Of a DNA stretch of 64,000 nt, positions 27,550 through 62,239 are shown one piece after another. Position 1 is the first letter of the stretch. Every line of letters starts with the position of its first letter. The translations under genes and the position numbers were made by a program. Where the stretch lies: positions 25,944 to 89,943 of the forward strand of contig JBFWXQ010000016.1 of the NCBI GenBank assembly GCA_050187295.1, in the 5' to 3' direction. A model generated the notes under the pieces. It did no database searches. It had not been told where the DNA came from and saw only the letters and a program-made list of their open reading frames with translations. The DNA is from Blastocatellales bacterium. Lineage in GTDB: Bacteria; Acidobacteriota; Blastocatellia; RBC074.

Positions 27550-29853
27550 ATGACCAAACAGCCACAACCACAGTCAGTTTCGGCAGTCGACAGAAAATAT
27601 CTTTCAACAGGATTTAAGCATCTGGATGATTTATTGGGCGGGCCCGGTTTTTTGCGCGAATCAGTTATCTTGGTTCGCGGAGAACCGGGAACAGGAAAGA
27701 CATCACTTGCCTTACAAATCGCCCGAAATGCGATCAAAAACTTTGACCATTATCTTGTCTTCGTCTGTGCGGAAGATAAACCAGAGATTTCATTGAATCA
27801 GATTACCGAATCTTATTGGAACCAAGACTATAAGACTTATTTGGGAAACCAGGATAGATGGCAGGCGCTTGACATAGAGGTTTTAACCGAAAGTTGGAAT
27901 AGCCTGCCCGAGGCTGCCGCCGAAGAAATCAAAAAAGGCAAAAAAACTATCTGGAGCCTTATTGGTTTCGGATCATCGGATGAAGCGACCAAAGAAGATC
28001 TGACCAGGAAAAAACTAAGAGAGTTGGGCCAGGAAGAAATAGACAAAATGAGGATGGAGGATCTTCTAGGTAGTCTGTGGAAGTGGTTTATGCCTGAAAG
28101 GGAAAAACCACTGCTTGTGGTCATTGACAGCCTGAGCGCTCTGATTTACTGGGCACAAAGACACTTCAGGGCATATGACGACAGGTACATGTTGTTGGCC
28201 ATCATCCGTTCTTTTGAAAAAAGATGGGAACAGATGAGAATAAAACCTACGGTTATTTTTACCGCAGAAGATGCCGAAACTATCCATAGCAAAACCGCCG
28301 AAAGCTATATTGCCGATGTGGTCATTCAATTGCAGCGCGAGACAATCACTCACCCAATCCCGATTGCGATGGAAAAATCCGCAGACTGGCAAGAAGACTT
28401 GTTATTTTGCCGTGTGTTAAAAGGCCGTGGATTGCCCACTCAACGCCGATCCTGTTGCTATGAATTTGTTAAAGACCCGGAGAACAAGGAAAAGAACGGC
28501 ATTGATTTTTTTCCAACTTATGCCGCACAAGGGCTGATTTCACTGTTTCATGAAAACCTGCCTCAATTCGAGGTAATTCAGAACCTCAGAAAAGTTGACA
28601 TGCCATCTTCTTATCCGGGGGTTATCGTCCAGGAATTCACTCTATCGGGACTGCAAAGAATGTTTGCGGTGCGCAGGTATGTGAGGAAGATTCCTCCTCG
28701 GCATCCAATGCTGCTATCCCACGTTGATGAATATTGGGTTCAAGTATTGAAAGAAGCCGGCTTGCTTTACCCTATTCCAAGTGAGGCTCTTCGTATTTAC
28801 TCACTGCCTTTATCTGATGATAACCAAGTGATCAAAGAGTTAAGCGAGGCGAAGGCAAAAAGGTATCTTGACGATTCATCTGAGCCAGGCAAAGTCAATT
28901 TTCTGGCAGTGCCGCAAATGGGCAATGTCGGGTTGATGGTTTATCGCAAAGACCTGCTCAGATCCATTGGGATTGAAACGCCGCCGGAAACCTGGGAAGA
29001 ATTGGAAAGTATCGGCCGGGAATTGCAATCTCCGGATTTGCCACACCCTCTTCTGATTGAAACCCAGACCTACGACACATTACTGGTCACCGCGCTGGAA
29101 CTAGGTTGGGGACACGGATCGTTCTGGTCAACTAAGCGGGATGAAGAGAACAAGGAAAGGCTCTTTATCAAACTTGAATCTGACAACGAAGCCTGCTTTG
29201 ACGATTTCGTTGTATCACTAGAAAGATTACGCCGTTGGATTCACGAAGATAAATTTGTTCCGATGCAATCAAGTGTTGACCCGGCCAAACATCCCAAAAC
29301 GGATTGGGTCTTTGCGCGGCATTGGTATTCGACCTGGGTGGATTACCGAACACGACCAAACAAGAAAAAAAGCAGTCTGATGGCCCAAATAAAAGAGAGT
29401 GATGAATTTGGAATCGCGAAAATTCCTATCTCCAAAGAGTATATGAAAAGGCAGAACACCCATTTGCCCAAACACCATTCCAGTTCGGGTGAATGGTATC
29501 TGGTTATTCAGGCCAACTCTGAAAATGTCGAATTGGGAATAGACCTCATCAATAACCTGATGTCTTCACGAAAAGTCACCGAGCGGGCGTTGGCAGGTGT
29601 TGAATTACCTGTTATGGAAAAGTTTTATGAAGCCTATGGATCGGTTTCGTGTTATGGCACAGATAAGACATTTAGCGAAATGCGCCAGATGTTCGCCGCT
29701 GATGCACGCAGCAGAGCGGAATTTGATGATTACAGGAAAGTCGGGCGAGTGCTTTACGGCGTTCTTCAGGCGGTTGTAACAAACCAATCAGTTAACGTCA
29801 GGGAATTGCTGGTCGACGCATTTAGGAGGCTTGATCCTGATTTCAAACCATAG
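27550..29853 (+). CDS. KaiC/RecA-superfamily single-domain ATPase fused to a type-1 extracellular-solute-binding-protein-like domain (no signal peptide)
   Basis: GFKHLDDLLGGPGFLRESVILVRGEPGTGKTSLALQIA (KaiC/RadA-like Walker A) and LLVVIDSLSAL (Walker B). C-terminal half shows SBP_bac_1-like segments (LMVYRKDLLRSIGIETPPETWEELESIGREL; GEWYLVIQANSENVELGIDLINNLMS). SD AGGAGG. The gene is visibly AT-richer with AGA/AGG Arg codons. Confidence 0.5.
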   Translation: MTKQPQPQSVSAVDRKYLSTGFKHLDDLLGGPGFLRESVILVRGEPGTGKTSLALQIARNAIKNFDHYLVFVCAEDKPEISLNQITESYWNQDYKTYLGNQDRWQALDIEVLTESWNSLPEAAAEEIKKGKKTIWSLIGFGSSDEATKEDLTRKKLRELGQEEIDKMRMEDLLGSLWKWFMPEREKPLLVVIDSLSALIYWAQRHFRAYDDRYMLLAIIRSFEKRWEQMRIKPTVIFTAEDAETIHSKTAESYIADVVIQLQRETITHPIPIAMEKSADWQEDLLFCRVLKGRGLPTQRRSCCYEFVKDPENKEKNGIDFFPTYAAQGLISLFHENLPQFEVIQNLRKVDMPSSYPGVIVQEFTLSGLQRMFAVRRYVRKIPPRHPMLLSHVDEYWVQVLKEAGLLYPIPSEALRIYSLPLSDDNQVIKELSEAKAKRYLDDSSEPGKVNFLAVPQMGNVGLMVYRKDLLRSIGIETPPETWEELESIGRELQSPDLPHPLLIETQTYDTLLVTALELGWGHGSFWSTKRDEENKERLFIKLESDNEACFDDFVVSLERLRRWIHEDKFVPMQSSVDPAKHPKTDWVFARHWYSTWVDYRTRPNKKKSSLMAQIKESDEFGIAKIPISKEYMKRQNTHLPKHHSSSGEWYLVIQANSENVELGIDLINNLMSSRKVTERALAGVELPVMEKFYEAYGSVSCYGTDKTFSEMRQMFAADARSRAEFDDYRKVGRVLYGVLQAVVTNQSVNVRELLVDAFRRLDPDFKP

Positions 29854-31096
29854 GAGTACATTTTTGTTTTTTGCTCTTATCCACATCGGCAGAAATTTTT
29901 CTCAATTTCCAGACTCTAAGTAAGTTCGCAGGCGACAAGCCCGCTCGGCTGATTTTCGCCAGCAAATCGAATGGGCGTCGCAGGTAATTCCAGTAAACGC
30001 TTCCCTGTTGCGGTTGGCCGTAAATCTGTTCCAAATGCTCTCGCGAAGTGAAAAGCATGGAAACCAGATTTCCCAGTTTGGCCAATGGATGACGGCCAAA
30101 ATCGAAGTATTCAAACAATCGTGCGGCGTCAATCAAACCTTGCGTTTCTTCTGTCAAGGCAGTTTCCATCAGCAAAGCCATTCGATCGTCGCTGACGGCT
30201 TTGTCCAATTCTTCGAGCGAACTGTCAGCCAGCATTTTCAACATTTGAACGGCCAGCATTGCGGCTCCTCCAAATCCGAATTCCGTCGCTTGCCGGATCA
30301 TCGCTTCGCGCGCTTCGGCTTCGCGGGCAAAAATGAAATACAGATCGGCGGCGGTTCGCAAAATTGCTTTGGTCGTTTGCAGATCAACCAGCGTGTGATG
30401 AACCAGATGAAAAGCCAGATCGGTTGATGAAGGAAGCAGTATGTCGTTTCCTGAAATTGAAACGGTGACAGCTCGATTGCGGATTTCGGCAAAGCTGAAA
30501 TCGCGCGCGCGCCTGGCAAAATGAAAAGCGCGGTGATGAAGTTCCAGGATCAGTCCGTTGGCTCCGCGACGCGGCCAAAGATGGTTGATGTCATTGGCCA
30601 ATCGCTGGCGAGGCCGCGCTGAACGCTTTCCTGGCAAATGATGATACCCAAGCCCGGCGACGATTTGATCAGCCCGTTCAAGCTTTTCCGGCTCAACCAG
30701 CAGGTCAATATCAAGCGCAGCTCGCAATCCGGCCTGCGGATAATATCCGCACAGCATCAATGCCGCGCCTTTCAGCGGAATTGCAGTGATGCCTTCGGCT
30801 TTCAATGCAGCTGTCAATCGCGCAGCTTCGTTGACATAAGCCAGGTGGCGAGCCGCCCACGTCTGGCTGGCATCGCGCAATTGTTCGCGCTGCTGTTCCG
30901 GCAAGGAATTCAGCAACCCGAATTGCGACAGATTGAACCGCAACAGCGAAGCGACGCTGTGAAATTCAGCGCGGCGGATCGTCTCAGGCCAGGCAATCTC
31001 ATCCCGTGAAGCCAGCAGTTGACGCATTCGTTCATCGCTGGCTTCGGTCGGCAGCAACCCGCTCAGCAGCAATTTGTCAGTGTTGGTGAGTATCAC
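29843..31096 (-). CDS. Uncharacterised nucleotidyltransferase family protein (PF14907/NTP_transf_5-like)
   Basis: ALDIDLLVEPEK matches the D-x-D-LLV motif of this family; about 400 aa; 3' end overlaps the KaiC-like gene by 11 nt (convergent). Confidence 0.5.
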   Translation of the reverse strand: MILTNTDKLLLSGLLPTEASDERMRQLLASRDEIAWPETIRRAEFHSVASLLRFNLSQFGLLNSLPEQQREQLRDASQTWAARHLAYVNEAARLTAALKAEGITAIPLKGAALMLCGYYPQAGLRAALDIDLLVEPEKLERADQIVAGLGYHHLPGKRSARPRQRLANDINHLWPRRGANGLILELHHRAFHFARRARDFSFAEIRNRAVTVSISGNDILLPSSTDLAFHLVHHTLVDLQTTKAILRTAADLYFIFAREAEAREAMIRQATEFGFGGAAMLAVQMLKMLADSSLEELDKAVSDDRMALLMETALTEETQGLIDAARLFEYFDFGRHPLAKLGNLVSMLFTSREHLEQIYGQPQQGSVYWNYLRRPFDLLAKISRAGLSPANLLRVWKLRKISADVDKSKKQKCTPMV

Positions 31097-52201: not shown

Positions 52202-53068
52202 GTGCCCAAGCGTTTAACAACCGGTTACCACACAATCCTGCCATCGTACTTAATTCTGCTGGCGCTCCACCTGATCGCTCAACTGCATGGGTTTTCACTC
52301 TCTGCCGGACAGCCAAAAGATTCGCAATCTCTTCCCGCTTCAATCTGGATCGAACCGAACATCGGAATGAAATTCGTTCTGATTCCGGCTGGAAGCTTCA
52401 GAATGGGGACACCTCTGACCGAACCTGAAAGAGAGTCGAATGAAACCCCTCATAAAGTTCGCCTGACACGCGCTTTTTATCTGGGAGCTTACGAAGTTAC
52501 TCAAGGCCAGTGGGAAAAAGTGATGGGCAATAATCCATCACACTTCAATAACTGTGGCTCCGATTGTCCGGTCGAACGCGTCAATTATTACGATGTCCAG
52601 CATTTCATTGAAAAATTGCAAAAGCTCTCAGGCAATTTCAGGTTTCGATTGCCGACCGAAGCCGAATGGGAATATGCCTGCCGAGCCGGAACGAAGACGC
52701 CGTTCAACACAGGAAATAAACTGACCACCAATCAAGCCAATTACAACGGCCGGTTCCCTTACAACCGAAACCCCAAAGGTCAAAATCGAGAGAAAACCCT
52801 GCCGGTCGGCAGTTTTCCGCCGAACGCCTGGGGGCTTTACGACATGCACGGCAATGTCTGGGAATGGTGTCAGGATTGGTTTTGCCCTTACCCGAAGCGC
52901 GCAGTCTTTGATCCGGTTGGAAATTGTCAGACTGAATTGAAAGTCATACGCGGTGGAAGCTGGGCTTTCAACGCCCAAAGCGCACGAAGCGGACTTCGTT
53001 ACACCCACAGACCGCAAGACCTCGGTTACAGCCTGGGCTTTCGCCTGGTTCGTGAAATTGAAAAATAG
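52202..53068 (+). CDS. Formylglycine-generating-enzyme (FGE/SUMF1) family protein with N-terminal membrane/signal segment
   Basis: RVNYYD, GNVWEWCQDW and RGGSWAFNAQSARSGLRYT are FGE-sulfatase family hallmarks. Confidence 0.7.
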   Translation: MPKRLTTGYHTILPSYLILLALHLIAQLHGFSLSAGQPKDSQSLPASIWIEPNIGMKFVLIPAGSFRMGTPLTEPERESNETPHKVRLTRAFYLGAYEVTQGQWEKVMGNNPSHFNNCGSDCPVERVNYYDVQHFIEKLQKLSGNFRFRLPTEAEWEYACRAGTKTPFNTGNKLTTNQANYNGRFPYNRNPKGQNREKTLPVGSFPPNAWGLYDMHGNVWEWCQDWFCPYPKRAVFDPVGNCQTELKVIRGGSWAFNAQSARSGLRYTHRPQDLGYSLGFRLVREIEK

Positions 53069-53137
53069 AAATATTTTTGGGAACTATTCAGCCCGCTCGC
53101 TCCTATCACACATGACAACCTGAAATGACTTCCGGGT

Positions 53138-53761
53138 ATGAAAGCAATCGAAAACTGCAGTGACGAAATACTTTTGAAACGCGCCATGGTCGGGGATGAA
53201 GAGGCTTTCACCCGGCTCTACCGCAATCTTTGCGGCGTTGTTTATCGTTTCGCGCGTCAGATGAGCGGATCGCCTGCATTGGCGGAAGACGTTACACAGG
53301 AAGTTTTTCTGATTCTTTTGCGTAAAGCGCAGCTCTTTGACCCTGACCGTGGATCGCTTTCCACATATTTGCTGCAGATCACGCGAAACGAAATCTTGCG
53401 CCGTCTGGGGCGTGACCGCAACCATGTCGCTTTAGTCGAAAATGATCAGGAAATGGACGTTCCGCCGGACGAAAACCTGATCGTTAAGGGAACGCCGCTC
53501 GGCGCATTGATGCGAAACGAAGAGATTGAACTGGTTCGTCAGGCGGTTTTGGGGCTGCCGATTCATTACCGCGAAGTCGTTGTCCTGTGCGAACTGGAAG
53601 AACTGAGTTACAACGAAGCCGCCGCAATGCTTGATTGCGCGGTTGGCACGGTTCGCTCGCGACTGCATCGCGCGCGCGCTTTGTTGAAACAACGGCTGCA
53701 AATCAGTCAACCGGTAGAATCGGACTCGTTGCGGATAAACCGTGCGGCATTTTTGAGATGA
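53138..53761 (+). CDS. ECF RNA polymerase sigma factor (second copy)
   Basis: Region 2 EDVTQEVFLIL and region 4 ELSYNEAAAMLDCAVGTVRSRL. Confidence 0.75.
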   Translation: MKAIENCSDEILLKRAMVGDEEAFTRLYRNLCGVVYRFARQMSGSPALAEDVTQEVFLILLRKAQLFDPDRGSLSTYLLQITRNEILRRLGRDRNHVALVENDQEMDVPPDENLIVKGTPLGALMRNEEIELVRQAVLGLPIHYREVVVLCELEELSYNEAAAMLDCAVGTVRSRLHRARALLKQRLQISQPVESDSLRINRAAFLR

Positions 53762-53764
53762 GTT

Positions 53765-54535
53765 ATGAACTGTCAGGAATTTGAAACCACCATTGTTGAA
53801 ATTGCGCGAAACCGTCTGATGGACGCTGCAACGCGCGAACAGGGATTGAAACACGCTGAAGTCTGTCAGTCCTGCTTGGCGCTGTTGGAGGAAGAACGTG
53901 TTTTAAGTAACGGTTTGAAAGCGCTTTCCATCGAAACTGGTGCGGAAGAGATTCCCGCTGGAATCGAAAATGCTGTGATGGCGGCATTTCGCCAACGCCA
54001 GGTTATTTCAACCGGTGAATCGGTCAAGTCCTCGGCGTTTATCAATCGCAGGTGGTTGCTGGCGGCGGCAGCGGTTTTATTGATCTCAGGCATTTCATTG
54101 GCGGCCTGGCTGCTGTCCAAACCGCAGCAGGATACCATCGCCATTAATCCAACGCCGAGTCCTATGACCTCGCCGACGCCTGTTTCCATTGAAACAAACC
54201 TCGCTCCGCCACAAGCGAATGAGGAAACTGTTTCGTTGACAATCCGTGATCCGAAACCATCGCCTCGCAGCAAACGATTGCTGAAAGAAAGCGATTACCC
54301 ACAACCGGAACCTTACGGTGACCGGCGCGAAATCGTCACACAGTTTTACCCTATCAATCAGACCAGTGAATTAATTCCATTGGAAGGTGGTCAAATCCTG
54401 CGCGTCAAAATGCCGCGCACGAATCTGGTTCCATTGGGAATCCCCGTCAATCAGGAACGCGTGGATGAAACCGTCCTCGCCGATGTGCTGGTCAGCAACG
54501 ACGGATTGGCTCGCGCCATACGACTGGTTTATTGA
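53765..54535 (+). CDS. Anti-sigma factor (zf-HC2-like) with a single TM helix
   Basis: HAEVCQSCLALLEEE; TM WLLAAAAVLLISGISLAAWLL; immediately follows the sigma gene. Confidence 0.55.
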   Translation: MNCQEFETTIVEIARNRLMDAATREQGLKHAEVCQSCLALLEEERVLSNGLKALSIETGAEEIPAGIENAVMAAFRQRQVISTGESVKSSAFINRRWLLAAAAVLLISGISLAAWLLSKPQQDTIAINPTPSPMTSPTPVSIETNLAPPQANEETVSLTIRDPKPSPRSKRLLKESDYPQPEPYGDRREIVTQFYPINQTSELIPLEGGQILRVKMPRTNLVPLGIPVNQERVDETVLADVLVSNDGLARAIRLVY

Positions 54536-54625
54536 TCCCTATCCGGCGACCGATTGAAACCGGACCAACAAGTTTGCAACTGATCTTCAACAAAACAACT
54601 TCTGAAAGTTAGGAGAGGAATACTT

Positions 54626-55822
54626 ATGAATAGGAAACGACAATTTTTCCTTGCCACACTGTGCAGCTTTGCCTTGCTCGGCAACAATGTTGCCGTCTTT
54701 GCTCAAAGCAAGGAGAAGAAGCAGGAAGCCACCACGCAAAAACACATTTTTATCAATCGCGACGGACAGGTGACGGAAGTCCAGAGCGGCGGCGTATGGA
54801 TTGATGAAACCAGCGGCGGCAATCGTGTGCATTTCGCCACTGCCGATTCCAGCGCGGGTTTTGTGACCAGCACCGGAGGTTCGCCGCAGGTTCAGATAGT
54901 CCAGAACGAATTCCATTTCGACAGCAATGTCGTCAAAGGCGCGCCCTATTCGGCGGATGCCTTGACGGAATTCGTTCAGGTTCTCGGCGATGGCAATCGG
55001 ATTACCCGCACGTCTTCAGCCAAAATATACCGCGACGGCGCCGGACGCACCCGACGAGAACAGGCATTGAAATCTGTCGGCTCCTGGACAGTTACTGGCG
55101 ATAATCAGGTCAGCATTTCGATCAGCGACCCGGTGGCAGGTACACAATACACTTTGAATCCGGCTGCTCGAACGGCAAGCAAAGTCACCGTTCACCGTGT
55201 AACCTCGAAAAGCGGCGGTGATAAAGTCGCCACCTACACCTTCTCCGGCAATTCCTCCAACATCACCGTCAAAGGTGAAAGCAGCGGTGATCAGGTCAAA
55301 TTCGTGACTGACGACAATCGCACATTCATTCTGTCAGGAGACGGCACAGAAAAGGCAATCGCCGAAGTAAAAGCCAAACAGGCTGCAACCGGCGGCGTAG
55401 TTTCAGGAGTCGCGACGACTGCGGGCAATGTCATGGCTTTTTCCAGCGACGCTGAGGTAAACAGGGAATCTCTGGGCACGCAGATGATTGAAGGCGTGAT
55501 GGCCGAGGGCACCCGCGTTACTTTCACAATTCCGGCGGGCAAAATTGGCAACGCAGCGCCTATCGTGACGGTAAACGAACGTTGGTATTCGCCCGAATTG
55601 CAGGCTGTCGTCATGAGCAAAAACAGCGACCCGCGCTCAGGCGAAACCACATATCGATTGATCAACATCAATCGCAGCGAACCTGATCCGTCGCTTTTCC
55701 AGGTTCCATCCGATTACACGATCAAAGAAAACAGCTTCAACTTCACCGGCAAGCCGGAAGATTTGATCAGGATGAAAAAGATTGAAGGTGAATTGAAAGC
55801 CAAAAAACCAAACGACAATTAA
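54626..55822 (+). CDS. Secreted hypothetical protein (beta-rich, T/S/G-rich) downstream of the ECF module
   Basis: Signal peptide MNRKRQFFLATLCSFALLGNNVAVFA; no recognised family. Confidence 0.4.
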   Translation: MNRKRQFFLATLCSFALLGNNVAVFAQSKEKKQEATTQKHIFINRDGQVTEVQSGGVWIDETSGGNRVHFATADSSAGFVTSTGGSPQVQIVQNEFHFDSNVVKGAPYSADALTEFVQVLGDGNRITRTSSAKIYRDGAGRTRREQALKSVGSWTVTGDNQVSISISDPVAGTQYTLNPAARTASKVTVHRVTSKSGGDKVATYTFSGNSSNITVKGESSGDQVKFVTDDNRTFILSGDGTEKAIAEVKAKQAATGGVVSGVATTAGNVMAFSSDAEVNRESLGTQMIEGVMAEGTRVTFTIPAGKIGNAAPIVTVNERWYSPELQAVVMSKNSDPRSGETTYRLININRSEPDPSLFQVPSDYTIKENSFNFTGKPEDLIRMKKIEGELKAKKPNDN

Positions 55823-55845
55823 CTCGACTTACACACGCCTAAAAA

Positions 55846-55895
55846 AGTAAAGAGGAGGGCAGCATTAATGCTGCCCTCCTCTTTACTTTTGGTTT
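55846..55895. terminator. Strong bidirectional hairpin terminator (21-bp perfect stem) between convergent genes
   Basis: AGTAAAGAGGAGGGCAGCATT / AATGCTGCCCTCCTCTTTACT flanked by AAAAAA and TTTTGGTTT. Confidence 0.8.
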
Positions 55896-55952
55896 CGTAT
55901 CCAGTTGTCGGAGTTTTTGTTTGGATTCCTGTTGTCTGACGGTGTCTGACGG

Positions 55953-56627
55953 TTATGGCTTCTGGAAGATCAGAAAATACATGTTCTTCCCATACTCGGC
56001 ATCGTAAAACCCTGGCCTGCTTTCTTTGAAAATGAACCCCTGTCGGGTTATCTCTCCACGCACCAGATCAGCCGGGATGACGTGCAACCGGTGATACTCT
56101 GTTCTTGGTCTGTCCGCAGGTCCTTCGCCGTCAATCAATCCAAGCCGCCCACCTGACTTCATCGCGCGAAAAACCGCCTTCATGATTCGGTCGTAATCAC
56201 GGAATTCGTGATAGGCATCCACTATCAATACAGTGTCCAATCCATCCGGCAAATGAGGATCATCCGCTTCGCTTAAAACCGTTTCCACCTGTTTCAGGTT
56301 TTCGCGTTCTTTCCTCGCCTGAACTTTATTGATGGCTGCTTCGTCAACATCCACGGCGTGAACCTTTCCTTCACTGCCTACGCGTGCAGCCAGGCGAAAG
56401 GTGAAATAGCCGGAGCCACAACCTATGTCTGCAACGCGCTGCCCCGACTTAATTGCCAAAGCGTCGAAAACCTCGGCGGGTCTTTGCCACTCATCACGCT
56501 TTCGATCGCGATCGGATTCCTGCGGCATTCCCCTGACCGCAGCGTTTTGCCAATCCAACAGGCAGACCCCGATCAAAGAAATCATCATCAAATGCAGCTT
56601 ATGTGACTTCATTTCGTAACTCCTCAC
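55953..56627 (-). CDS. Class I SAM-dependent methyltransferase with N-terminal signal-peptide-like segment
   Basis: VADIGCGSGYFTFRLA (motif I), LDTVLIVDAYHEF; hydrophobic N-terminus MKSHKLHLMMISLIGVCLL. Confidence 0.6.
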   Translation of the reverse strand: MRSYEMKSHKLHLMMISLIGVCLLDWQNAAVRGMPQESDRDRKRDEWQRPAEVFDALAIKSGQRVADIGCGSGYFTFRLAARVGSEGKVHAVDVDEAAINKVQARKERENLKQVETVLSEADDPHLPDGLDTVLIVDAYHEFRDYDRIMKAVFRAMKSGGRLGLIDGEGPADRPRTEYHRLHVIPADLVRGEITRQGFIFKESRPGFYDAEYGKNMYFLIFQKP

Positions 56628-57241
56628 ATATGGATGAACGGTTGAGTTTCCTGTGCTTTGGGCAGAGCCTTCTCAATAGCCTCTCGCAGTTGATTGTTTA
56701 ATGCCATCGGGTCAACAACCAACAGCGTGTGGAAAAAGGCGATCTTGCCCGTCGGATCAATAACGCAATACGTCGGCACTCCCCAGATGCCGTAGTTGCT
56801 GGCAACGGCCTCGTCACCAATCAGAAACATTGATTCCATCTGATGGTCCTTCAGAAAAGATTTCGGGTTGAACTCCGGTCCTGGCCAGATGCTGACGGTA
56901 AAAAAACGCACGGGCTTGTTTTGATACTCTCGCGCAAGCTGGTCAAATTGCGGCATCAGTTTCCGGCAAGGCCCGCACCAGTTAGCCCAGAAATCCAGCA
57001 CGATGACGTTACCGCGCAATGCCGAAAGTTTGATGGTCTCCCCTTCGATGGTTTTCAATTGCCAATCCGGCGCAACAGATCCAATGACAATTTCATCGTG
57101 GCGAGGTTCAGAACCGGGCCGCTGACCAAAAGCCGTGTGCTGCCATTGCAACGCGCAAACACTCAGCAACAAGATTCCGACCGCCCTGTAAGCTGGCATT
57201 GTGGCCTCCTCGTAAAAAATGGTTATGGCTGATTGTCTCAA
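56624..57241 (-). CDS. TlpA/ResA-like thiol-disulfide oxidoreductase (thioredoxin fold), secreted
   Basis: WANWCGPCRK CxxC motif; signal peptide. Confidence 0.7.
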   Translation of the reverse strand: MRQSAITIFYEEATMPAYRAVGILLLSVCALQWQHTAFGQRPGSEPRHDEIVIGSVAPDWQLKTIEGETIKLSALRGNVIVLDFWANWCGPCRKLMPQFDQLAREYQNKPVRFFTVSIWPGPEFNPKSFLKDHQMESMFLIGDEAVASNYGIWGVPTYCVIDPTGKIAFFHTLLVVDPMALNNQLREAIEKALPKAQETQPFIHM

Positions 57242-58819
57242 TCATCTGCTCACGCGTTTGAACGAGAAGGAAGGAAATATCGGCTTCGTGCCGTCAGGCA
57301 TTCTGAAATCCACACCACCGAACCTCATCTTGCCGGTCAGCGCCTGACCTTCCAGTTTCCCTTCGTAGAGGATCACTCCACGTGGTCGCATACCGTTCAT
57401 ATAACCAAATGTCAGACCGGTTGGAGTGATTTGCAGATACTCGACACTGCGGATGCGGAGCGAAGCGGGTGCTTTGGCATTTTCGACCTCGGCTACGACG
57501 CGCCCTTCCACAATCTTGATACGCAATGTCATCTGATCAATAACAGGCTCGCCCGGATTTCTCACTTCGTCACCGACCCATTCACCAAGATAGGCACGCG
57601 CTTCTTCAGGTGTGGGAAATGGCGTTGCCAGTAATCCTTCCACTGTTTCAGTCGGAGGCGGACGCCTTTCGACTTCGGCTATCTGCTTTAGCAAATTAGA
57701 GATGTCTGCCGGTGCTCCATAACCGGAAACGAGCCTATTGTAAGCTTCGCGCGCCGCCGCGCCGCGACCTTCCATCAACAGATCTTCCACGACCGTCCTG
57801 ATCAGTTTGCGCGGTGGAATGACATCCGCACCCAACGCCAAGCTAATTGTTGAGTAATACGGCAGAATGCTGGTCGTGGGCGTCACAGGCGCGGCATACA
57901 TTGAATAGTCACTGAACGCCTCGCGCAGCCCCAGATACATGCTGATCATCCCCAGCGATTCGTGCGATTCCTTTGATTTCATCTGCTCACGGTAAAGCTT
58001 CCATGAAGCAGGCGCAGCGGCAACGAGTGATTTCCACGCATCTTCAGACCAGCCGAAGCGCGCTTCCAGCGACATATAACGCAACGGCGCAGGCAACGCC
58101 CTGGCGCGTTCGATCAGTTTTTTTGCCAGCCAGTTTTCGCTGAGGTTGATGGGCGCGTCTATGGCGATGACGGCACGATACGCTGTGCGCGTGGCTGCGG
58201 CCCAGGTCACCAGAATGCCTCCGGAGGAATGCCCGATGAATGTGCGCGGCGCGCTGCCGCGAAACTGTCGATCAATGGCGGGCAGCAGTTCCTTTTCAAT
58301 GAAATCCAGAAACAGGTCGCCGCCTTCGTTCAGGCTGCTGCCGCTGACCGAAAGACCGGGCGGTGTCAGGTCATGCACACGCTCACGAAATGAACCGGTG
58401 TTTTCGATGGCCACGATGACAGATTCGGGGATCAGGCCGTTGCGACTGAGTTCATCGCTCACAGCCATGATTTGCGACACATTCGCTTCGCCGTCAAGCA
58501 CGATGGTGACGGGATAACGTCGCTCGATCGCGCTGTGCGCATAAGAAGATGGCAGCGCAATGTTGATCCGTCGCGTATGTTTAAGAATCGCAGAGGCGAT
58601 CTGATACGCCCGGACGTTGCTGCCGCGCGGAACCGGAACAGCGCGATCCGACTCAGCAACCAATGAAGGCAATTGTTGCGCCTGCGTTGGTTGAACGAAT
58701 GCCGAAACGATGGCAACCAGACAGAGCCCTGCCCACAACACGTATTTTTGCGTGCTCATTTGTTCTCCTTTTCCGTTTAGCTTGCTTTGAGGTTGGAATA
58801 GGCGCGTTATTTTCCGCAC
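57242..58819 (-). CDS. Secreted alpha/beta hydrolase (putative esterase family) with C-terminal extra domain
   Basis: GHSSGG nucleophile elbow; signal peptide; about 525 aa. Confidence 0.55.
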   Translation of the reverse strand: MRKITRLFQPQSKLNGKGEQMSTQKYVLWAGLCLVAIVSAFVQPTQAQQLPSLVAESDRAVPVPRGSNVRAYQIASAILKHTRRINIALPSSYAHSAIERRYPVTIVLDGEANVSQIMAVSDELSRNGLIPESVIVAIENTGSFRERVHDLTPPGLSVSGSSLNEGGDLFLDFIEKELLPAIDRQFRGSAPRTFIGHSSGGILVTWAAATRTAYRAVIAIDAPINLSENWLAKKLIERARALPAPLRYMSLEARFGWSEDAWKSLVAAAPASWKLYREQMKSKESHESLGMISMYLGLREAFSDYSMYAAPVTPTTSILPYYSTISLALGADVIPPRKLIRTVVEDLLMEGRGAAAREAYNRLVSGYGAPADISNLLKQIAEVERRPPPTETVEGLLATPFPTPEEARAYLGEWVGDEVRNPGEPVIDQMTLRIKIVEGRVVAEVENAKAPASLRIRSVEYLQITPTGLTFGYMNGMRPRGVILYEGKLEGQALTGKMRFGGVDFRMPDGTKPIFPSFSFKRVSR

Positions 58820-59601
58820 CAGGCATTGAGTTTCTTTTCCAATGCCTCGCGCCTGCTGCGAGTCAGTTTCAGTTCAGTGCCATTGGCCAAAAGCACCAGC
58901 GATTCGCCGTTAAACAGCGACTGAATTTCTTTGACGCGATCAAGATTGACGATTGTCGAACGATGAATTCGCGCAAAGCGTTCAGGATCGAGAGCGTTTT
59001 CCAGTTCGGTCATCGTTTGCCTGACCAGATGCGCTTTGCCGCCGCTGTGCAATCGGACGTAATAATCATAGGCCTCGATCCAATCAATCTCTTCGGTTTT
59101 CAGAAATATCACCCGCCCGGTGGTTTTGACCATCAAACGCGTCAAATACCGAGGAGCTTCTGGTTGGCGCGAACCGATCAATGTCAGAAGCTTCTTTCCA
59201 AGTTCGCTGGCATCCTGTTGTTCGATTTGCTGTTTCGCCTGCGTCAATGCCTTCTGAAAACGTTCGTCGCTGAACGGTTTCAGCAGGTAATCCAGCGCGC
59301 TGACTTCGAACGCGCGCAGCGCGTATTGATCATATGCCGTAACGAAGATAATCGCCGGCAAGGGCTTTCCTGATAATTCCTCCAGCACATCAAAACCATT
59401 CAGTTCCGGCATCTGCACGTCCAGAAAAACAAGGTCGGGTTCCAGAGCGCGAATGCTGCTGACGGCTTCCTTTCCGTTTCCGCATTCCCTGATCAGTTCG
59501 ATTTCCGAATCATCCTTGAGCAAAGCACGCAGGTTGCGCCGGGCTGGCGGTTCATCATCCACAATGATCACCCTGATCTTTTTGCCGTTTGCCTTCATCA
59601 T
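58807..59601 (-). CDS. LytTR-family response regulator
   Basis: Receiver domain (IVDDE...DLVFLDVQMPELNG) plus C-terminal LytTR DNA-binding domain. Confidence 0.8.
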   Translation of the reverse strand: MMKANGKKIRVIIVDDEPPARRNLRALLKDDSEIELIRECGNGKEAVSSIRALEPDLVFLDVQMPELNGFDVLEELSGKPLPAIIFVTAYDQYALRAFEVSALDYLLKPFSDERFQKALTQAKQQIEQQDASELGKKLLTLIGSRQPEAPRYLTRLMVKTTGRVIFLKTEEIDWIEAYDYYVRLHSGGKAHLVRQTMTELENALDPERFARIHRSTIVNLDRVKEIQSLFNGESLVLLANGTELKLTRSRREALEKKLNAWCGK

Positions 59602-60785
59602 TGTTTTGACGCATCCGCCGGAACTTGCAACGGTATGGACAAAAAAGCTTCAACACCGCCGGATGCTTGGTTGCGGATTTCGAGTTTGAAATCCGCTCCA
59701 AACAATTGCCGCAATCGGGCCAGTGTGTTTGCCAGTCCAAGACCTTGCCCGGTCTCCATTTGCCAATCATCCGGCAATCCGGCGCCATCGTCGCAAATTC
59801 GCAGTTCCAATCGTCCATCGCTGCGTTTCGCTGACAGCGAAAGCAAGCCGGGAGCAGCACGGCTGGCCAAACCATGCCGAATGGCATTTTCGACCAACGG
59901 CTGCGTAATCAGATTCGGCACCAACGCGTCCAAAACTTGAGGCTCGGCCTCGATACGAGTCCGTAACCGATCTGAAAAGCGCATCTGCTGAAGCTTCAGG
60001 TAAAGTTCCAGCCAGTCGAGTTCTTCGCTCAAACGCACTTCCTGCCTGCCGGAATTGTCCAGCGTCTGTCGCAGCAATTCGCTTAAACCGACCAGCATCT
60101 GCACTGCTGCGGCATTGTCGTTATCGCGCACCAAACCTGTGATGCCATTCAATGTGTTGAACAGAAAATGCGGATGCAACTGCATCTTCAACATCTGCAA
60201 TTGCGCCTGCGCCAGTTGAGTTTCCAATTGTGATGCGCGCAATTCACGTTCGCGGGATTGCCGGTAATATTCAATCGCAGTGCCGATGCCCAGAATCAGA
60301 GCGTAAAACAAAGCGCAAAACGGCAAATCGCGCAACCACCAATACATCAGCCGCAGATTAAATTGCGGCGTCGGCGTCGAAATCGCCCCTTCCACAATCA
60401 ACCACATCACCGCTATGACCATCGCGGCGTGCAACACGCACAACGCGGCTATGGCCAGCAGGTGAACAGACAACGACCGCCAGAGAGCGCTACGTTCAAG
60501 CGGAAACCGCCGCCTCAACCATAAAACCACTGGGGCCAGCGCCATCCACGCCAGCCAGGCGGCCAGTTGTGAGAGGAAAATACGGCTGACAGCGCTCAAC
60601 ATTCCCGGCGGCGGGGCCGTACGCCGCAGAGGCGACAATTCAATGAACGGCGCCCCGGCAGAAAACACTCCGACTGCCAGCCAGAACAGAAAAAGCAACA
60701 CCCATATCACCCGTTTCCACCGTTTGAAACCGGCGTTGACAGGTTCGTCAGCCGCATTGTTCTTCTGTTGCCAGATTTCAGTCAT
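59598..60785 (-). CDS. LytS-type sensor histidine kinase (His_kinase PF06580 type) with 5-6 TM helices
   Basis: HPHFLFNTLNGITGLV histidine-containing motif; HATPase region (ENAIRHG...DDGAG...GLGL). Confidence 0.75.
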   Translation of the reverse strand: MTEIWQQKNNAADEPVNAGFKRWKRVIWVLLFLFWLAVGVFSAGAPFIELSPLRRTAPPPGMLSAVSRIFLSQLAAWLAWMALAPVVLWLRRRFPLERSALWRSLSVHLLAIAALCVLHAAMVIAVMWLIVEGAISTPTPQFNLRLMYWWLRDLPFCALFYALILGIGTAIEYYRQSRERELRASQLETQLAQAQLQMLKMQLHPHFLFNTLNGITGLVRDNDNAAAVQMLVGLSELLRQTLDNSGRQEVRLSEELDWLELYLKLQQMRFSDRLRTRIEAEPQVLDALVPNLITQPLVENAIRHGLASRAAPGLLSLSAKRSDGRLELRICDDGAGLPDDWQMETGQGLGLANTLARLRQLFGADFKLEIRNQASGGVEAFLSIPLQVPADASKQ

Positions 60786-60888
60786 TCCAGTTTTATTCTC
60801 AAACTGAATAACAACCCGATTTCATCGCAGGGAGTTTTGAATTGATTGCGAAAGAAATGCTACACGGTATTTGCCTGGCGGAGGATAC

Positions 60889-60920
60889 TTTTGCAGCGAT
60901 TTGAACAATTTTTGCAGCGA
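60889..60920 (-). promoter_or_regulatory. Two 11-bp direct repeats TTTTGCAGCGA spaced exactly 21 bp apart, about 105-135 bp upstream of the lytS-like start: candidate LytTR binding site
   Basis: Perfect repeats at 60889-60899 and 60910-60920; the two-helical-turn spacing matches known LytTR (AgrA-type) operator architecture. Confidence 0.45.
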
Positions 60921-61099
60921 AATGCTTCTGAGACGGGTTAAACCATTGAGAACAGAAGAATCACGGGAAAACCTAAGAAAAAAGGTTCCCCGTGTCCACT
61001 GGTTAATTTTGCCGTCTCAATGTCGCCTGCTCTGATTTAGGGTCAGGCAAGTTGCTTATTGCATTCGTAAGGGTTGAGCCTGTTTGGCAATGTGGTGAT

Positions 61100-62239
61100 T
61101 CAGTTGGTCGAAAGCAGGATTGAATTGATTTGGTCGGCAATTGTAGTAACTGCAACTCCATCCAGATTACACATAATCGCCACAATCAATCCTTTTTCAG
61201 GAATCATTTCCAACAGCGTCGAAGTCCCCGCCTGTCCGCCAGTATGCCGGACCAGTTTCAGCCCGGCAATTTCCGCGACATCCCAACCCAGACCATATCC
61301 GGTTGTTTTTCCGTCGCGTGTTTTTTGTTCGGTCCACATCTGTTCCAACGAATTCTTGCCGAGCAGTTTTTTCGTATTAACGGCGGCAGCAAATCTGACC
61401 AGATCGGCAGGAGTCGCCAGCAAGCCGCCGCCCGGAACCTTCATGCTGGTGTCATGCAGAGAAGCGTTGTAGATTTCATCCACCTTCATATGAAGCCTCT
61501 CTTCCCGGGACATGCGATCGTAACGTTGCTGGCTCAACTTCGTATAACCGCGAGCGCGATGCGGAATTATCAATCGCTGATTGTCTAATTCCGTGTTCTT
61601 CATCTCGGCTGGTTTGAACAAATGCTCGGTCACGTAATCTTCGTAACTTGCGCCCGACGCGCCCTCAATGGCGCAACCCAGCACACTGTATCCAAAAGTC
61701 GTGTACACATATTTTTGACCTGGCCGTAATAGCAATGGATCGTCCTTGAAAATTGACAATGACGAGGTAACTGATGGGAAGAATTTTGTGCCATTGTCTT
61801 CGCCGGGTTTGTAATGACGAACTCCGCCCAGATGACCCAGCAATTGCCTTGCAGTAACAGTCCATTGTTTTTGAGGAAAAGCCTGGCAGTATTTCTGTAT
61901 CGGAGCATCAAGATGGAGTTTCCCCTGTTCGGCCAATTGCATAACGCCGACTGCTGTAATGGCTTTGGCTATCGAAGCCGTTCGAAAAGCCGTCGTGGCA
62001 TTGGCAGGAACCTTATTTTCCAGATCGGCCAGACCGAATCCCTGTTCATAACGGAGTTGGTTGTCGATGGCGATGGCGATCGACAGCGCAGGGATTTTCT
62101 GCTTTGCCATCTCTGTTTTAATGATCGTATGAATTTTGCTCAGTTTGTCCGGCGAAAAGCCTGATCCGTTTTTCGTCGTCGCGGAAACCGTCAGCACCAA
62201 GATTAAGACCAGACCGTCAACGATGATCCGTTTGTTCAT
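61100..62239 (-). CDS. Secreted serine hydrolase of the beta-lactamase/PBP (class C-like) family
   Basis: S-x-x-K motif FRTASIAKAI; signal peptide; about 380 aa. Confidence 0.6.
   Translation of the reverse strand: MNKRIIVDGLVLILVLTVSATTKNGSGFSPDKLSKIHTIIKTEMAKQKIPALSIAIAIDNQLRYEQGFGLADLENKVPANATTAFRTASIAKAITAVGVMQLAEQGKLHLDAPIQKYCQAFPQKQWTVTARQLLGHLGGVRHYKPGEDNGTKFFPSVTSSLSIFKDDPLLLRPGQKYVYTTFGYSVLGCAIEGASGASYEDYVTEHLFKPAEMKNTELDNQRLIIPHRARGYTKLSQQRYDRMSREERLHMKVDEIYNASLHDTSMKVPGGGLLATPADLVRFAAAVNTKKLLGKNSLEQMWTEQKTRDGKTTGYGLGWDVAEIAGLKLVRHTGGQAGTSTLLEMIPEKGLIVAIMCNLDGVAVTTIADQINSILLSTN

Follow-up and report, generated by a model that had tools for sequence, protein, structure and literature searches.

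A LytTR two-component operon of Blastocatellia that may place an esterase, a thioredoxin and a class I methyltransferase in the periplasm

In bacteria, methylation by S-adenosylmethionine (SAM) is regarded as a reaction of the cytoplasm, and the methyltransferase effectors of pathogens act within the host cell, where SAM is available. To our knowledge, the class I enzymes TehB, GtmA/TmtA and RebM/MitM and the protein of structure entry 3dh0 are cytosolic as well. So is MddH, a small (~200-aa) UbiE-family enzyme that lacks a signal peptide and has H2S and methanethiol as methyl acceptors (PMC11445057). METTL9, a mammalian protein, was presented in a 2025 preprint as the first secreted methyltransferase, and a study in Anaplasma only speculates on methylation in the periplasm, by an enzyme that lacks a signal peptide (PMC4636158). 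In the literature that we searched, we found no bacterial periplasmic SAM-dependent methyltransferase; what came up were host-directed effectors, METTL9 and this tentative Anaplasma case. Here we analyzed a 64,000-nt stretch of the genome of a Blastocatellales bacterium, a soil acidobacterium (contig JBFWXQ010000016.1, positions 25,944 to 89,943; hereafter the window), in which the genes for a LytS/AlgZ-type sensor histidine kinase and a LytTR response regulator are followed by those for an esterase, a thioredoxin and a class I SAM-type methyltransferase with an apparent export signal.

We propose to read this locus as a two-component operon that regulates its own expression and equips the periplasm with an inducible three-enzyme module for the processing of a small molecule, and we give this reading an even chance of being correct. 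Comparative sequence evidence supports its regulation, export and cooperation parts well, while the chemistry is what we infer.

Each of the three enzymes begins with an export-type segment as read from its sequence, in agreement with a preliminary description of this DNA. The putative signal peptides of the esterase (MSTQKYVLWAGLCLVAIVSAFVQPTQA-QQ; hyphens here and below mark the cleavage site) and of the thioredoxin (MPAYRAVGILLLSVCALQWQHTAFG-Q, with n-, h- and c-regions) are canonical by inspection. The methyltransferase starts with MKSHK, LHLMMISLIGVCLL and DWQNAAVRG; its c-region is less canonical, and its h-region of 14 residues is, judged by its length, too short for a typical membrane anchor. 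Across 20 aligned homologues, this segment keeps its hydrophobic character and not its sequence, while the mature part is ~70% identical. Such variation is how signal peptides behave, and we infer cleavage; close homologues show ALA-V, TAA-V or ATA-T at the corresponding position. A strongly hydrophobic N-terminal segment, in many cases with an AxA site, was found in 110 of the 137 complete sequences among the best 150 family representatives (50% clustering). Relatives in Vicinamibacteria carry AFA-QQ sites, and those in Rhodothermales and Gammaproteobacteria (34-38% identity) carry the lipoboxes LAAC, ATGC, LSAC and AGAC, which are processed only after export. Together these sequences indicate that the signal peptide is a rule of the family and not an accident of annotation, and we regard it as very likely that the methyltransferase is truly exported. 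The preliminary description had called an exported SAM methyltransferase odd. The lipoprotein signals of distant relatives and the one-signal fusions described below strengthen this point, and the oddity stays whether the segment is a cleavable signal or a transmembrane anchor, because both topologies place the methyltransferase domain outside the cytoplasm. General export by the twin-arginine translocation (Tat) pathway, which could carry bound SAM, was considered and rejected: the RRxhh motif occurs in only 8 of ~137 representatives and 6 of 120 close homologues, so Tat is not the general route for a folded, SAM-loaded protein.

In several relatives the methyltransferase and one of its partners form a single polypeptide behind one signal peptide. 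The thioredoxin is fused to it in this way in representative P0084 and in loci L001-3, where the locus consists of kinase, regulator and fusion. A complete esterase with its beta-domain is fused to the methyltransferase in L021 and L028, and another type of esterase in L029. A beta-domain of ~130 aa alone precedes the methyltransferase in a further set of proteins (P0002, P0007, P0021, P0056, P0073 and P0087; L006, L023 and L032). Because these fusions join the domains in one polypeptide, the enzymes, judged by their relatives, share a compartment and probably also a substrate, and it is likely that all three act jointly on one substrate. The beta-domain itself occupies the C-terminal ~130-135 aa of the window's esterase (encoded at 57245-57649). 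Pfam has no match for it, either in this form or in that fused to the methyltransferase, and BLASTP detected no similarity between the domain at the C-terminus of the esterase and the one that precedes the methyltransferase in the fusions. Profile-profile comparison identified the two as homologous (hhalign 95.9%, E 6e-9), so that the beta-domain seems to behave as a module able to serve either the esterase or the methyltransferase. Our impression that it is lipocalin-like comes solely from a GxW-type motif.

The gene content given in the preliminary description (kinase, regulator, alpha/beta hydrolase, thioredoxin-like protein and methyltransferase, all on the minus strand) was borne out by the open reading frames (ORFs), which fill 55953-60785 in this order, and by Pfam, which supports the domain assignments made earlier for all five (Table 1). 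The boundaries had been called overlapping or abutting. This is true of the kinase and regulator genes, which overlap by 4 nt (ATGA) and are the only overlapping pair, and not of the others, where the gaps of 47, 42 and 11 nt are still operon-like. Mechanically called ORFs overlap only through upstream GTG/TTG starts. The esterase, thioredoxin and methyltransferase genes have ATG starts at 58759, 57199 and 56612, respectively, with AGGAG/GAGGAG ribosome-binding sites 6-8 nt ahead, and an independent gene call on a public contig with an identical methyltransferase gave the same product lengths of 505, 191 and 219 aa. The operon ends, as had been suggested, at a strong bidirectional terminator. 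The hairpin, at 55845-55888, folds into a perfect 22-bp stem (-44.6 kcal/mol, z = -9.9). Behind it, the minus-strand transcript continues with U6 and the plus strand with a T-rich run, and it is the only such hairpin in the window. A scan of 55500-61500 found no sigma-70-like promoter, and the window as a whole contained no tRNA or Rfam family and no paralogue of any of the five genes.

The kinase matches the His_kinase family PF06580 (6.3e-26; 90.9 bits, cut-off 25.2) and HATPase_c (33.3 bits, cut-off 26.4), and its H-box reads HPHFLFN. Inspection of its sequence revealed four predicted transmembrane helices (residues ~26-44, 66-89, 104-130 and 150-170) with short loops and no periplasmic domain, and Pfam gave no match to 5TMR_LYT (PF07694) or GAF. 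By analogy with AlgZ/FimS, it probably senses inside the membrane. The regulator contains a Response_reg (1.2e-25) and a LytTR domain (6.1e-25); its best NCBIfam match is BtsR, at 176.6 bits under the 246-bit cut-off, and its match to LytR is also below threshold. The earlier comment that named toxins, peptides and murein hydrolases as classical targets of LytTR systems is uninformative here, as no such gene is present. Nor is the kinase a peptide sensor of the AgrC/ComD type, being a four-helix LytS/AlgZ-type PF06580 protein.

LytTR regulators bind direct repeats that come in pairs, spaced by about two turns of the helix. The sequence ATTTCGCTGCAAAAATTGTTCAAATCGCTGCAAAAG, located ~100 nt upstream of the kinase start, comprises two 11-bp direct repeats (TCGCTGCAAAA) with a period of 21 bp. 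A position weight matrix (PWM) built from 13 other loci, with the window excluded, gave this box a score of 31.6; the next best score in the 128 kb of scanned strand was 13.6, and the maximum over 100 randomized windows was 19.5. The same box lies upstream of the kinase gene in L001/3, L010-12, L014, L017, L021, L023-24, L027-29 and L035, and weakly in L019, and the PWM also finds it in the independent loci L060/L062 (42.9) and L063 (49.0). In total ~17 related loci have it at the same place, with the consensus TTCACnGCAnAA, 9-10 nt, TTCGCnACAAA. All related loci of the same kinase/regulator lineage for which upstream sequence is available have it, always once and always before the kinase gene; none was found ahead of the esterase, thioredoxin or methyltransferase genes. 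This is the phylogenetic footprint expected for a LytTR regulator, and we take the box as a putative binding site within a presumed autoregulated promoter region. With one box per locus, short gaps and a single terminator, a single autoregulated transcript is indicated, and the recurrence of the gene set across genomes further favors the one operon proposed earlier. That the five genes form one transcript is, in our judgment, highly probable. In one of the loci, L063, an IS605 OrfB/TnpB-type gene (1513-2673, opposite strand) lies between the box (1411-1446) and the kinase gene (2796-), an insertion that parts the operon from its presumed control site.

We found 790 close relatives of the methyltransferase, and those with a named source all belong to Acidobacteriota, within Blastocatellia or outside it. 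Scanning a single genome for each species yielded 51 loci, 31 of which were close (at least 57% identity, Blastocatellia). Among these 31, the kinase and/or regulator gene lies directly upstream of the methyltransferase gene on the same strand in 20, the esterase or a second, 30%-identical esterase type is present in 20, and the thioredoxin in eight; the flanking genes vary from locus to locus. Kinase-regulator-esterase-methyltransferase is the commonest order. The order of the window, with the thioredoxin gene between those of the esterase and the methyltransferase, recurs in L034, while in L060 and L063 the thioredoxin gene precedes that of the esterase; L014 has kinase-regulator-thioredoxin-methyltransferase-esterase and L026 has kinase-regulator-methyltransferase-esterase. 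A second kinase/regulator lineage (37-48% identity) stands beside the same enzymes in L008, L018, L026 and L034, and there the box is absent. Two genes near the lone methyltransferase of L004, a PadR regulator and an adjoining 52-aa ORF, were rejected as partners, as neither is a recurrent neighbor. Two arrangements are apparent deletion products: in L034 (3550-4248) the thioredoxin is reduced to its N-terminal half, which reads on in frame into the methyltransferase at residue ~90, and in L035 (1146-2385) the kinase is likewise left with its N-terminal half, directly next to the methyltransferase gene. Six loci (L010, L011, L017, L027, L031 and L032) come from metagenome-assembled genomes with the Firmicutes names "Heliomicrobium sp." or "Heliobacteriaceae". 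In the first four of these the methyltransferase is 60-76% and the kinase and regulator are 65-77% identical to those of the window, with the same box; the regulator occurs without the box in L031, and L032 has the methyltransferase only. The organism labels look wrong.

The methyltransferase matches the Pfam families Methyltransf_31 (2e-18) and UbiE (1e-16), as well as Methyltransf_25/11/12, and NCBIfam gave only sub-threshold matches of the ArsM/MenG type. A Pfam match to TehB (9.4e-8; 32 bits, cut-off 20.4) is confined to the SAM-binding part. The protein carries the family motif RDEWQRP, motif I as DIGCGSG, and the acidic residues D88, D118 and D132. In an alignment of 71 sequences, down to 33% identity, D62, G64 and G68 are invariant, G66 and D88 are at least 90% conserved, and the family-specific residues R39, Q43, Y134-H135, R170 and H177 are invariant or nearly so. 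From this alignment, AlphaFold modeled residues 29-219 with a predicted local distance difference test score (pLDDT) of 97 and a predicted template-modeling score (pTM) of 0.92; an earlier alignment of 20 sequences (~70% identity) had given an unusable pLDDT of 57. Foldseek matched the model to more than 1400 methyltransferase chains at E <= 1e-3. The best match was 3dh0, an uncharacterized SAM methyltransferase from Aquifex (template-modeling (TM) score 0.80, 25% identity), and further neighbors include MitM, RebM, TleD, UbiG, Rv2258c, TehB and the thiol methyltransferases GtmA and TmtA (TM score 0.66-0.69 to the last three), as well as 3ocj, deposited as a Bordetella "possible exported protein". 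According to the model, the enzyme has a Rossmann-like seven-strand fold, canonical for small-molecule methyltransferases, with intact SAM-binding motifs. The conserved residues look like a working active site with a general base, and do not identify the acceptor. A role in anti-phage defense was rejected, the only match being a generic one of the methyltransferase domain to mad2.

These data bear on the alternative that the exported domain has kept the methyltransferase fold without transferring methyl groups from SAM outside the cell, acting instead in ligand binding, as a scaffold, or with a different donor or chemistry. We know of no periplasmic SAM pool, and class I folds have been recruited to other reactions, as in the cyclase SpnF, which is among the structural neighbors. 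However, a scaffold would not be expected to retain the Tyr-His pair and the Arg and His residues typical of an active site, nor a motif I (DxGxGxG) and acidic residues that are near-invariant over the 71 sequences. We consider this alternative unlikely, although it is the one that fares best against our proposal of a three-enzyme module that processes a small molecule.

That proposal draws on the esterase as well. It matches PF00756 (9e-15) and has a nucleophile elbow, GHSSGG, with Ser178, and a catalytic-type His266; both residues are invariant in 16 homologues, including the second esterase type at 30% identity. Among solved structures it comes closest to 3gff ("IroE-like serine hydrolase", 7.5e-23), and every other solved relative is a siderophore esterase (fungal IroE-like/SidJ-type enzymes, BES, EstB and ferric enterobactin esterase). 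IroE, PfeE and Cee are periplasmic enzymes. These relatives suit a role in periplasmic siderophore processing, in which the esterase would hydrolyze an ester-linked (catecholate/hydroxamate) ferri-siderophore after uptake, the thioredoxin would aid reductive release of iron, and the methyltransferase would O-methylate the resulting catechol or hydroxamate pieces. We hold this to be improbable. The protein of entry 3gff is itself uncharacterized beyond its "IroE-like" name, and neither the operon nor the related loci whose genes we read showed a TonB-dependent receptor, a siderophore transporter, another uptake gene for siderophores or regulation of the Fur type; the flanks of the operon lack a receptor or transporter as well. 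The operon is controlled through a two-component system whose sensor lies within the membrane. In addition, L001-3 keep the kinase, regulator, thioredoxin and methyltransferase without the esterase, and the methyltransferase resembles UbiE/Methyltransf_11 and not the cation-dependent catechol O-methyltransferase family.

The thioredoxin, with the active site WCGPC, matches AhpC-TSA (7e-22), Redoxin and Thioredoxin in Pfam, and falls under the NCBIfam cut-offs for ResA (4.7e-23; 82 bits, cut-off 170) and TlpA (5e-18; 65.7 bits, cut-off 230). Its closest matches of known structure are 3kcm, two entries named "thioredoxin family protein" (2yp6 and 4hqz) that we take to be pneumococcal Etrx proteins, and ResA, StoA and TlpA. 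The 3kcm protein, Etrx, ResA, StoA and TlpA are extracytoplasmic reductants, and pneumococcal Etrx proteins serve the repair of surface proteins. The cluster contains no ccm, res or sco genes. If the presumed Etrx likeness is a guide, the operon might maintain or modify envelope proteins: the methyltransferase would act on periplasmic or outer-membrane proteins (isoaspartate repair, Glu/Lys methylation), the thioredoxin would repair oxidized cysteines or feed a methionine sulfoxide reductase, and the esterase would strip methyl esters. The methyltransferase does have a weak PCMT match (3.9e-8), but this match is confined to the generic half that binds SAM and falls ten orders of magnitude short of those to small-molecule families, and the structural neighbors are small-molecule enzymes. 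There is no msr gene in the cluster, the beta-domain and the IroE-like esterase suit small ligands better, and the difficulty of SAM in the periplasm is the same. Although the methylation of an outer-membrane protein has been reported for Anaplasma, with the periplasm as its proposed site (PMC4636158), envelope protein modification seems to us as improbable here as siderophore processing.

Finally, that the N-terminal segment is no export signal, or that translation starts downstream, and that the enzyme is an ordinary cytoplasmic methyltransferase located here incidentally, is very improbable: the window copy has its non-canonical c-region and an internal Met (residue 29), and many homologues have an Arg after the predicted cleavage site, but it is the upstream ATG that has the ribosome-binding site, MK.HK and the hydrophobic stretch are conserved and the internal Met is not, distant relatives carry lipoboxes, and fusions put the domain after a thioredoxin, esterase or rhodanese behind a single N-terminal signal.

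The rhodanese fusions belong to a wider family. A profile search of 1.84 billion cluster representatives returned 298 matches at E < 1e-30 and 6310 at E < 1e-10, and the methyltransferase family spans Acidobacteriota, Rhodothermales and Gammaproteobacteria. Rhodanese domains are fused on either side of the methyltransferase (P0133, P0177, P0188, P0180, P0189, P0209, P0235, P0240 and P0261), TlpA-like thioredoxins occur in P0127, P0155 and P0245, and other partners are a DUF1223/Omp28-like domain with CPPC (P0168), DUF2911 (P0174) and a second methyltransferase domain. Of six fusions with a C-terminal rhodanese, five terminate at "YC[SD]", where full-length relatives read YCSCP. In the three loci examined (L064:1139-2233, L066:168-1211 and L067:657-1724) there is an in-frame TGA at the rhodanese active site, past which ~45 conserved rhodanese codons (…ALIGGYEEW…) continue to a second stop. 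We regard them as probable selenocysteine rhodanese domains joined to an exported methyltransferase. Folding of the sequence after the TGA in L064 gave no SECIS-like (selenocysteine insertion sequence) structure better than shuffles. By eye, a short GC-rich hairpin recurs ~16 nt past the TGA in all three loci. The neighborhood of one distant rhodanese-methyltransferase relative was uninformative. Another group of exported representatives, of 694-840 aa (P0154, P0157, P0162, P0175, P0184, P0187, P0204, P0214, P0246, P0250 and P0264), has the layout ~160-aa domain, methyltransferase, the same ~160-aa domain, methyltransferase; the repeated domain shows the motif SLIHLGSLDSFDIT…ENFGGEYTALQWF, and the example in P0175 has no Pfam match. 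It is possible, although we lean against it, that the operon is the regulated form of a large extracytoplasmic class I methyltransferase family that works with thiol/selenol redox partners such as thioredoxin and rhodanese.

Under our proposal of a periplasmic three-enzyme module, the membrane-embedded kinase would sense a membrane-associated cue and phosphorylate the LytTR regulator, which would then bind the repeat of 21-bp period and drive one transcript of five genes up to the hairpin terminator. The esterase, thioredoxin and methyltransferase would be exported through Sec and act in sequence on one small molecule, probably hydrophobic, with the beta-domain as a shared ligand-binding module that holds it. 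The IroE-like esterase would open an ester, lactone or thioester, and the TlpA-like thioredoxin would reduce a disulfide or keep a thiol reduced. The methyltransferase might cap the nucleophile thus freed, which could be a thiol or other chalcogen, our first choice, or else a hydroxyl or carboxyl. We prefer a sulfur or selenium nucleophile because the partners include thioredoxin and a rhodanese that probably contains selenocysteine. Detoxification or processing of a small molecule is a plausible function that falls somewhat short of an even chance, and thiol or chalcogen methylation in particular is a tentative suggestion that we consider doubtful.

Several observations weigh against this proposal. 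The bacterial periplasm is not known to have SAM available, and neither an exporter of SAM nor another donor system lies in or near the cluster. The predicted cleavage site of the window's methyltransferase (NAA-V or VRG-M) is non-canonical. Many loci do without the esterase or without the thioredoxin, and at least six loci with sufficient upstream sequence have the methyltransferase without kinase or regulator, so that the enzymes need not always cooperate. We detected no linked gene that would define a substrate (transporter, biosynthetic gene or receptor). The structural neighbors, according to the model, are generic class I enzymes, and the fold therefore does not fix the substrate class; the mature methyltransferase has no conserved cysteine, which disfavors ArsM-type chemistry. 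The rhodanese-fused relatives are only 33-38% identical, and because of this distance the link to sulfur may not transfer to the clade of the window.

The surroundings of the operon are summarized here with the coordinates of its features (Table 1). A convergent set of four plus-strand genes (52202-55822) runs into the same hairpin as the operon. Upstream of the kinase gene, on the same strand, lies a gene of the beta-lactamase family (PF00144; 60966-62239) whose product has a signal-like N-terminus. A weak terminator-like hairpin (60966-60991) and a spacer of ~310 nt that contains the regulator box stand between this gene and the kinase gene, and it is probably a unit separate from the operon. 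Elsewhere in the window, the GC content falls to 0.458 at 28001-30000, compared with ~0.51-0.55 in the remainder, in the 3′ part of a 767-aa ORF (27550-29853).

Table 1. Features of the operon and of the convergent gene set, in coordinates of the window
Feature	Position	Strand	Basis
Sensor histidine kinase, LytS/AlgZ type	59598-60785	-	Pfam; transmembrane helices read from sequence
Response regulator, receiver + LytTR	58807-59601	-	Pfam
IroE-like alpha/beta esterase, 505 aa	57242-58759	-	Pfam PF00756; structure matches
TlpA/ResA-like thioredoxin, 191 aa	56624-57199	-	Pfam; NCBIfam; WCGPC
Class I SAM-type methyltransferase, 219 aa	55953-56612	-	Pfam; AlphaFold; Foldseek
Bidirectional intrinsic terminator, common to the convergent plus-strand operon	55843-55890	both	Hairpin fold
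LytTR-type regulator box (putative)	60888-60923	-	Direct repeats; PWM
FGE-sulfatase-domain protein	52202-53068	+	Convergent set
Extracytoplasmic function (ECF) sigma factor	53138-53761	+	Convergent set
Probable anti-sigma factor, one transmembrane segment	53765-54535	+	Convergent set
398-aa secreted protein, no confident domain	54626-55822	+	Convergent set

If the family is active in the periplasm, the supply of cofactors to this compartment needs rethinking. Should the reading of an extracytoplasmic methyltransferase family be true, methyl transfer would take place in the periplasm and would require either the export of SAM or an unrecognized methyl donor, and soil and marine bacteria may possess an unrecognized route for sulfur/selenium methylation or for the capping of xenobiotics. 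Volatile sulfur/selenium cycling or envelope detoxification may likewise have an enzymatic route that has gone unnoticed. The Blastocatellia cassette provides an experimental handle on these questions, with a defined box, a kinase/regulator pair and three enzymes whose fusions indicate joint action.

Each part of the operon is a member or a sub-threshold relative of a known superfamily, and it is their combination that is undescribed. The regulatory pair resembles AlgZ(FimS)/AlgR, LytS/LytR and BtsS/BtsR in having a PF06580 H-box kinase with HATPase_c and an adjacent, overlapping receiver-LytTR gene, and its presumed site, a pair of direct repeats 21 bp apart, is like those of LytTR regulators. 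The kinase shares four transmembrane helices and the lack of a periplasmic domain with AlgZ/FimS; unlike LytS and BtsS it has no 5TMR_LYT or GAF domain, and the regulator, unlike BtsR and LytR, scores under the cut-offs that define those proteins. We know of no AlgZ/AlgR, LytS/LytR or BtsS/BtsR regulon with esterase, thioredoxin and methyltransferase targets such as these. The thioredoxin has the fold and the WCGPC site of TlpA, ResA and, presumably, Etrx, and an apparent N-terminal export segment. It differs from them in having no link to cytochrome c maturation, copper-centre assembly or msr genes, in scoring below all curated family cut-offs, and in having relatives fused to a methyltransferase (P0084, P0155 and P0245). 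Similarly, the esterase has the PF00756 fold, GxSxG serine, conserved histidine and export signal of the IroE-like siderophore esterases (3gff, PfeE, BesA and fungal SidJ/EstB), but carries an extra C-terminal beta-domain without a Pfam family and, again, has relatives fused to a methyltransferase (L021 and L028).

The methyltransferase has the same fold as 3dh0, MddH, TehB, GtmA/TmtA and RebM/MitM (TM score 0.66-0.80), with UbiE/Methyltransf_11-type motifs. What sets its family apart from MddH are the Sec or lipoprotein signals, and from the small-molecule class I enzymes in general its own N-terminal motif R-D-x-W-Q-[RK] and its extracytoplasmic fusion partners; our literature searches found no characterized member. 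With the secreted methyltransferases of pathogens and METTL9 it shares a predicted departure from the cytoplasm of the producer. In contrast to the pathogen effectors, however, its lipoprotein forms and its thioredoxin and rhodanese partners point to the bacterium's own envelope.

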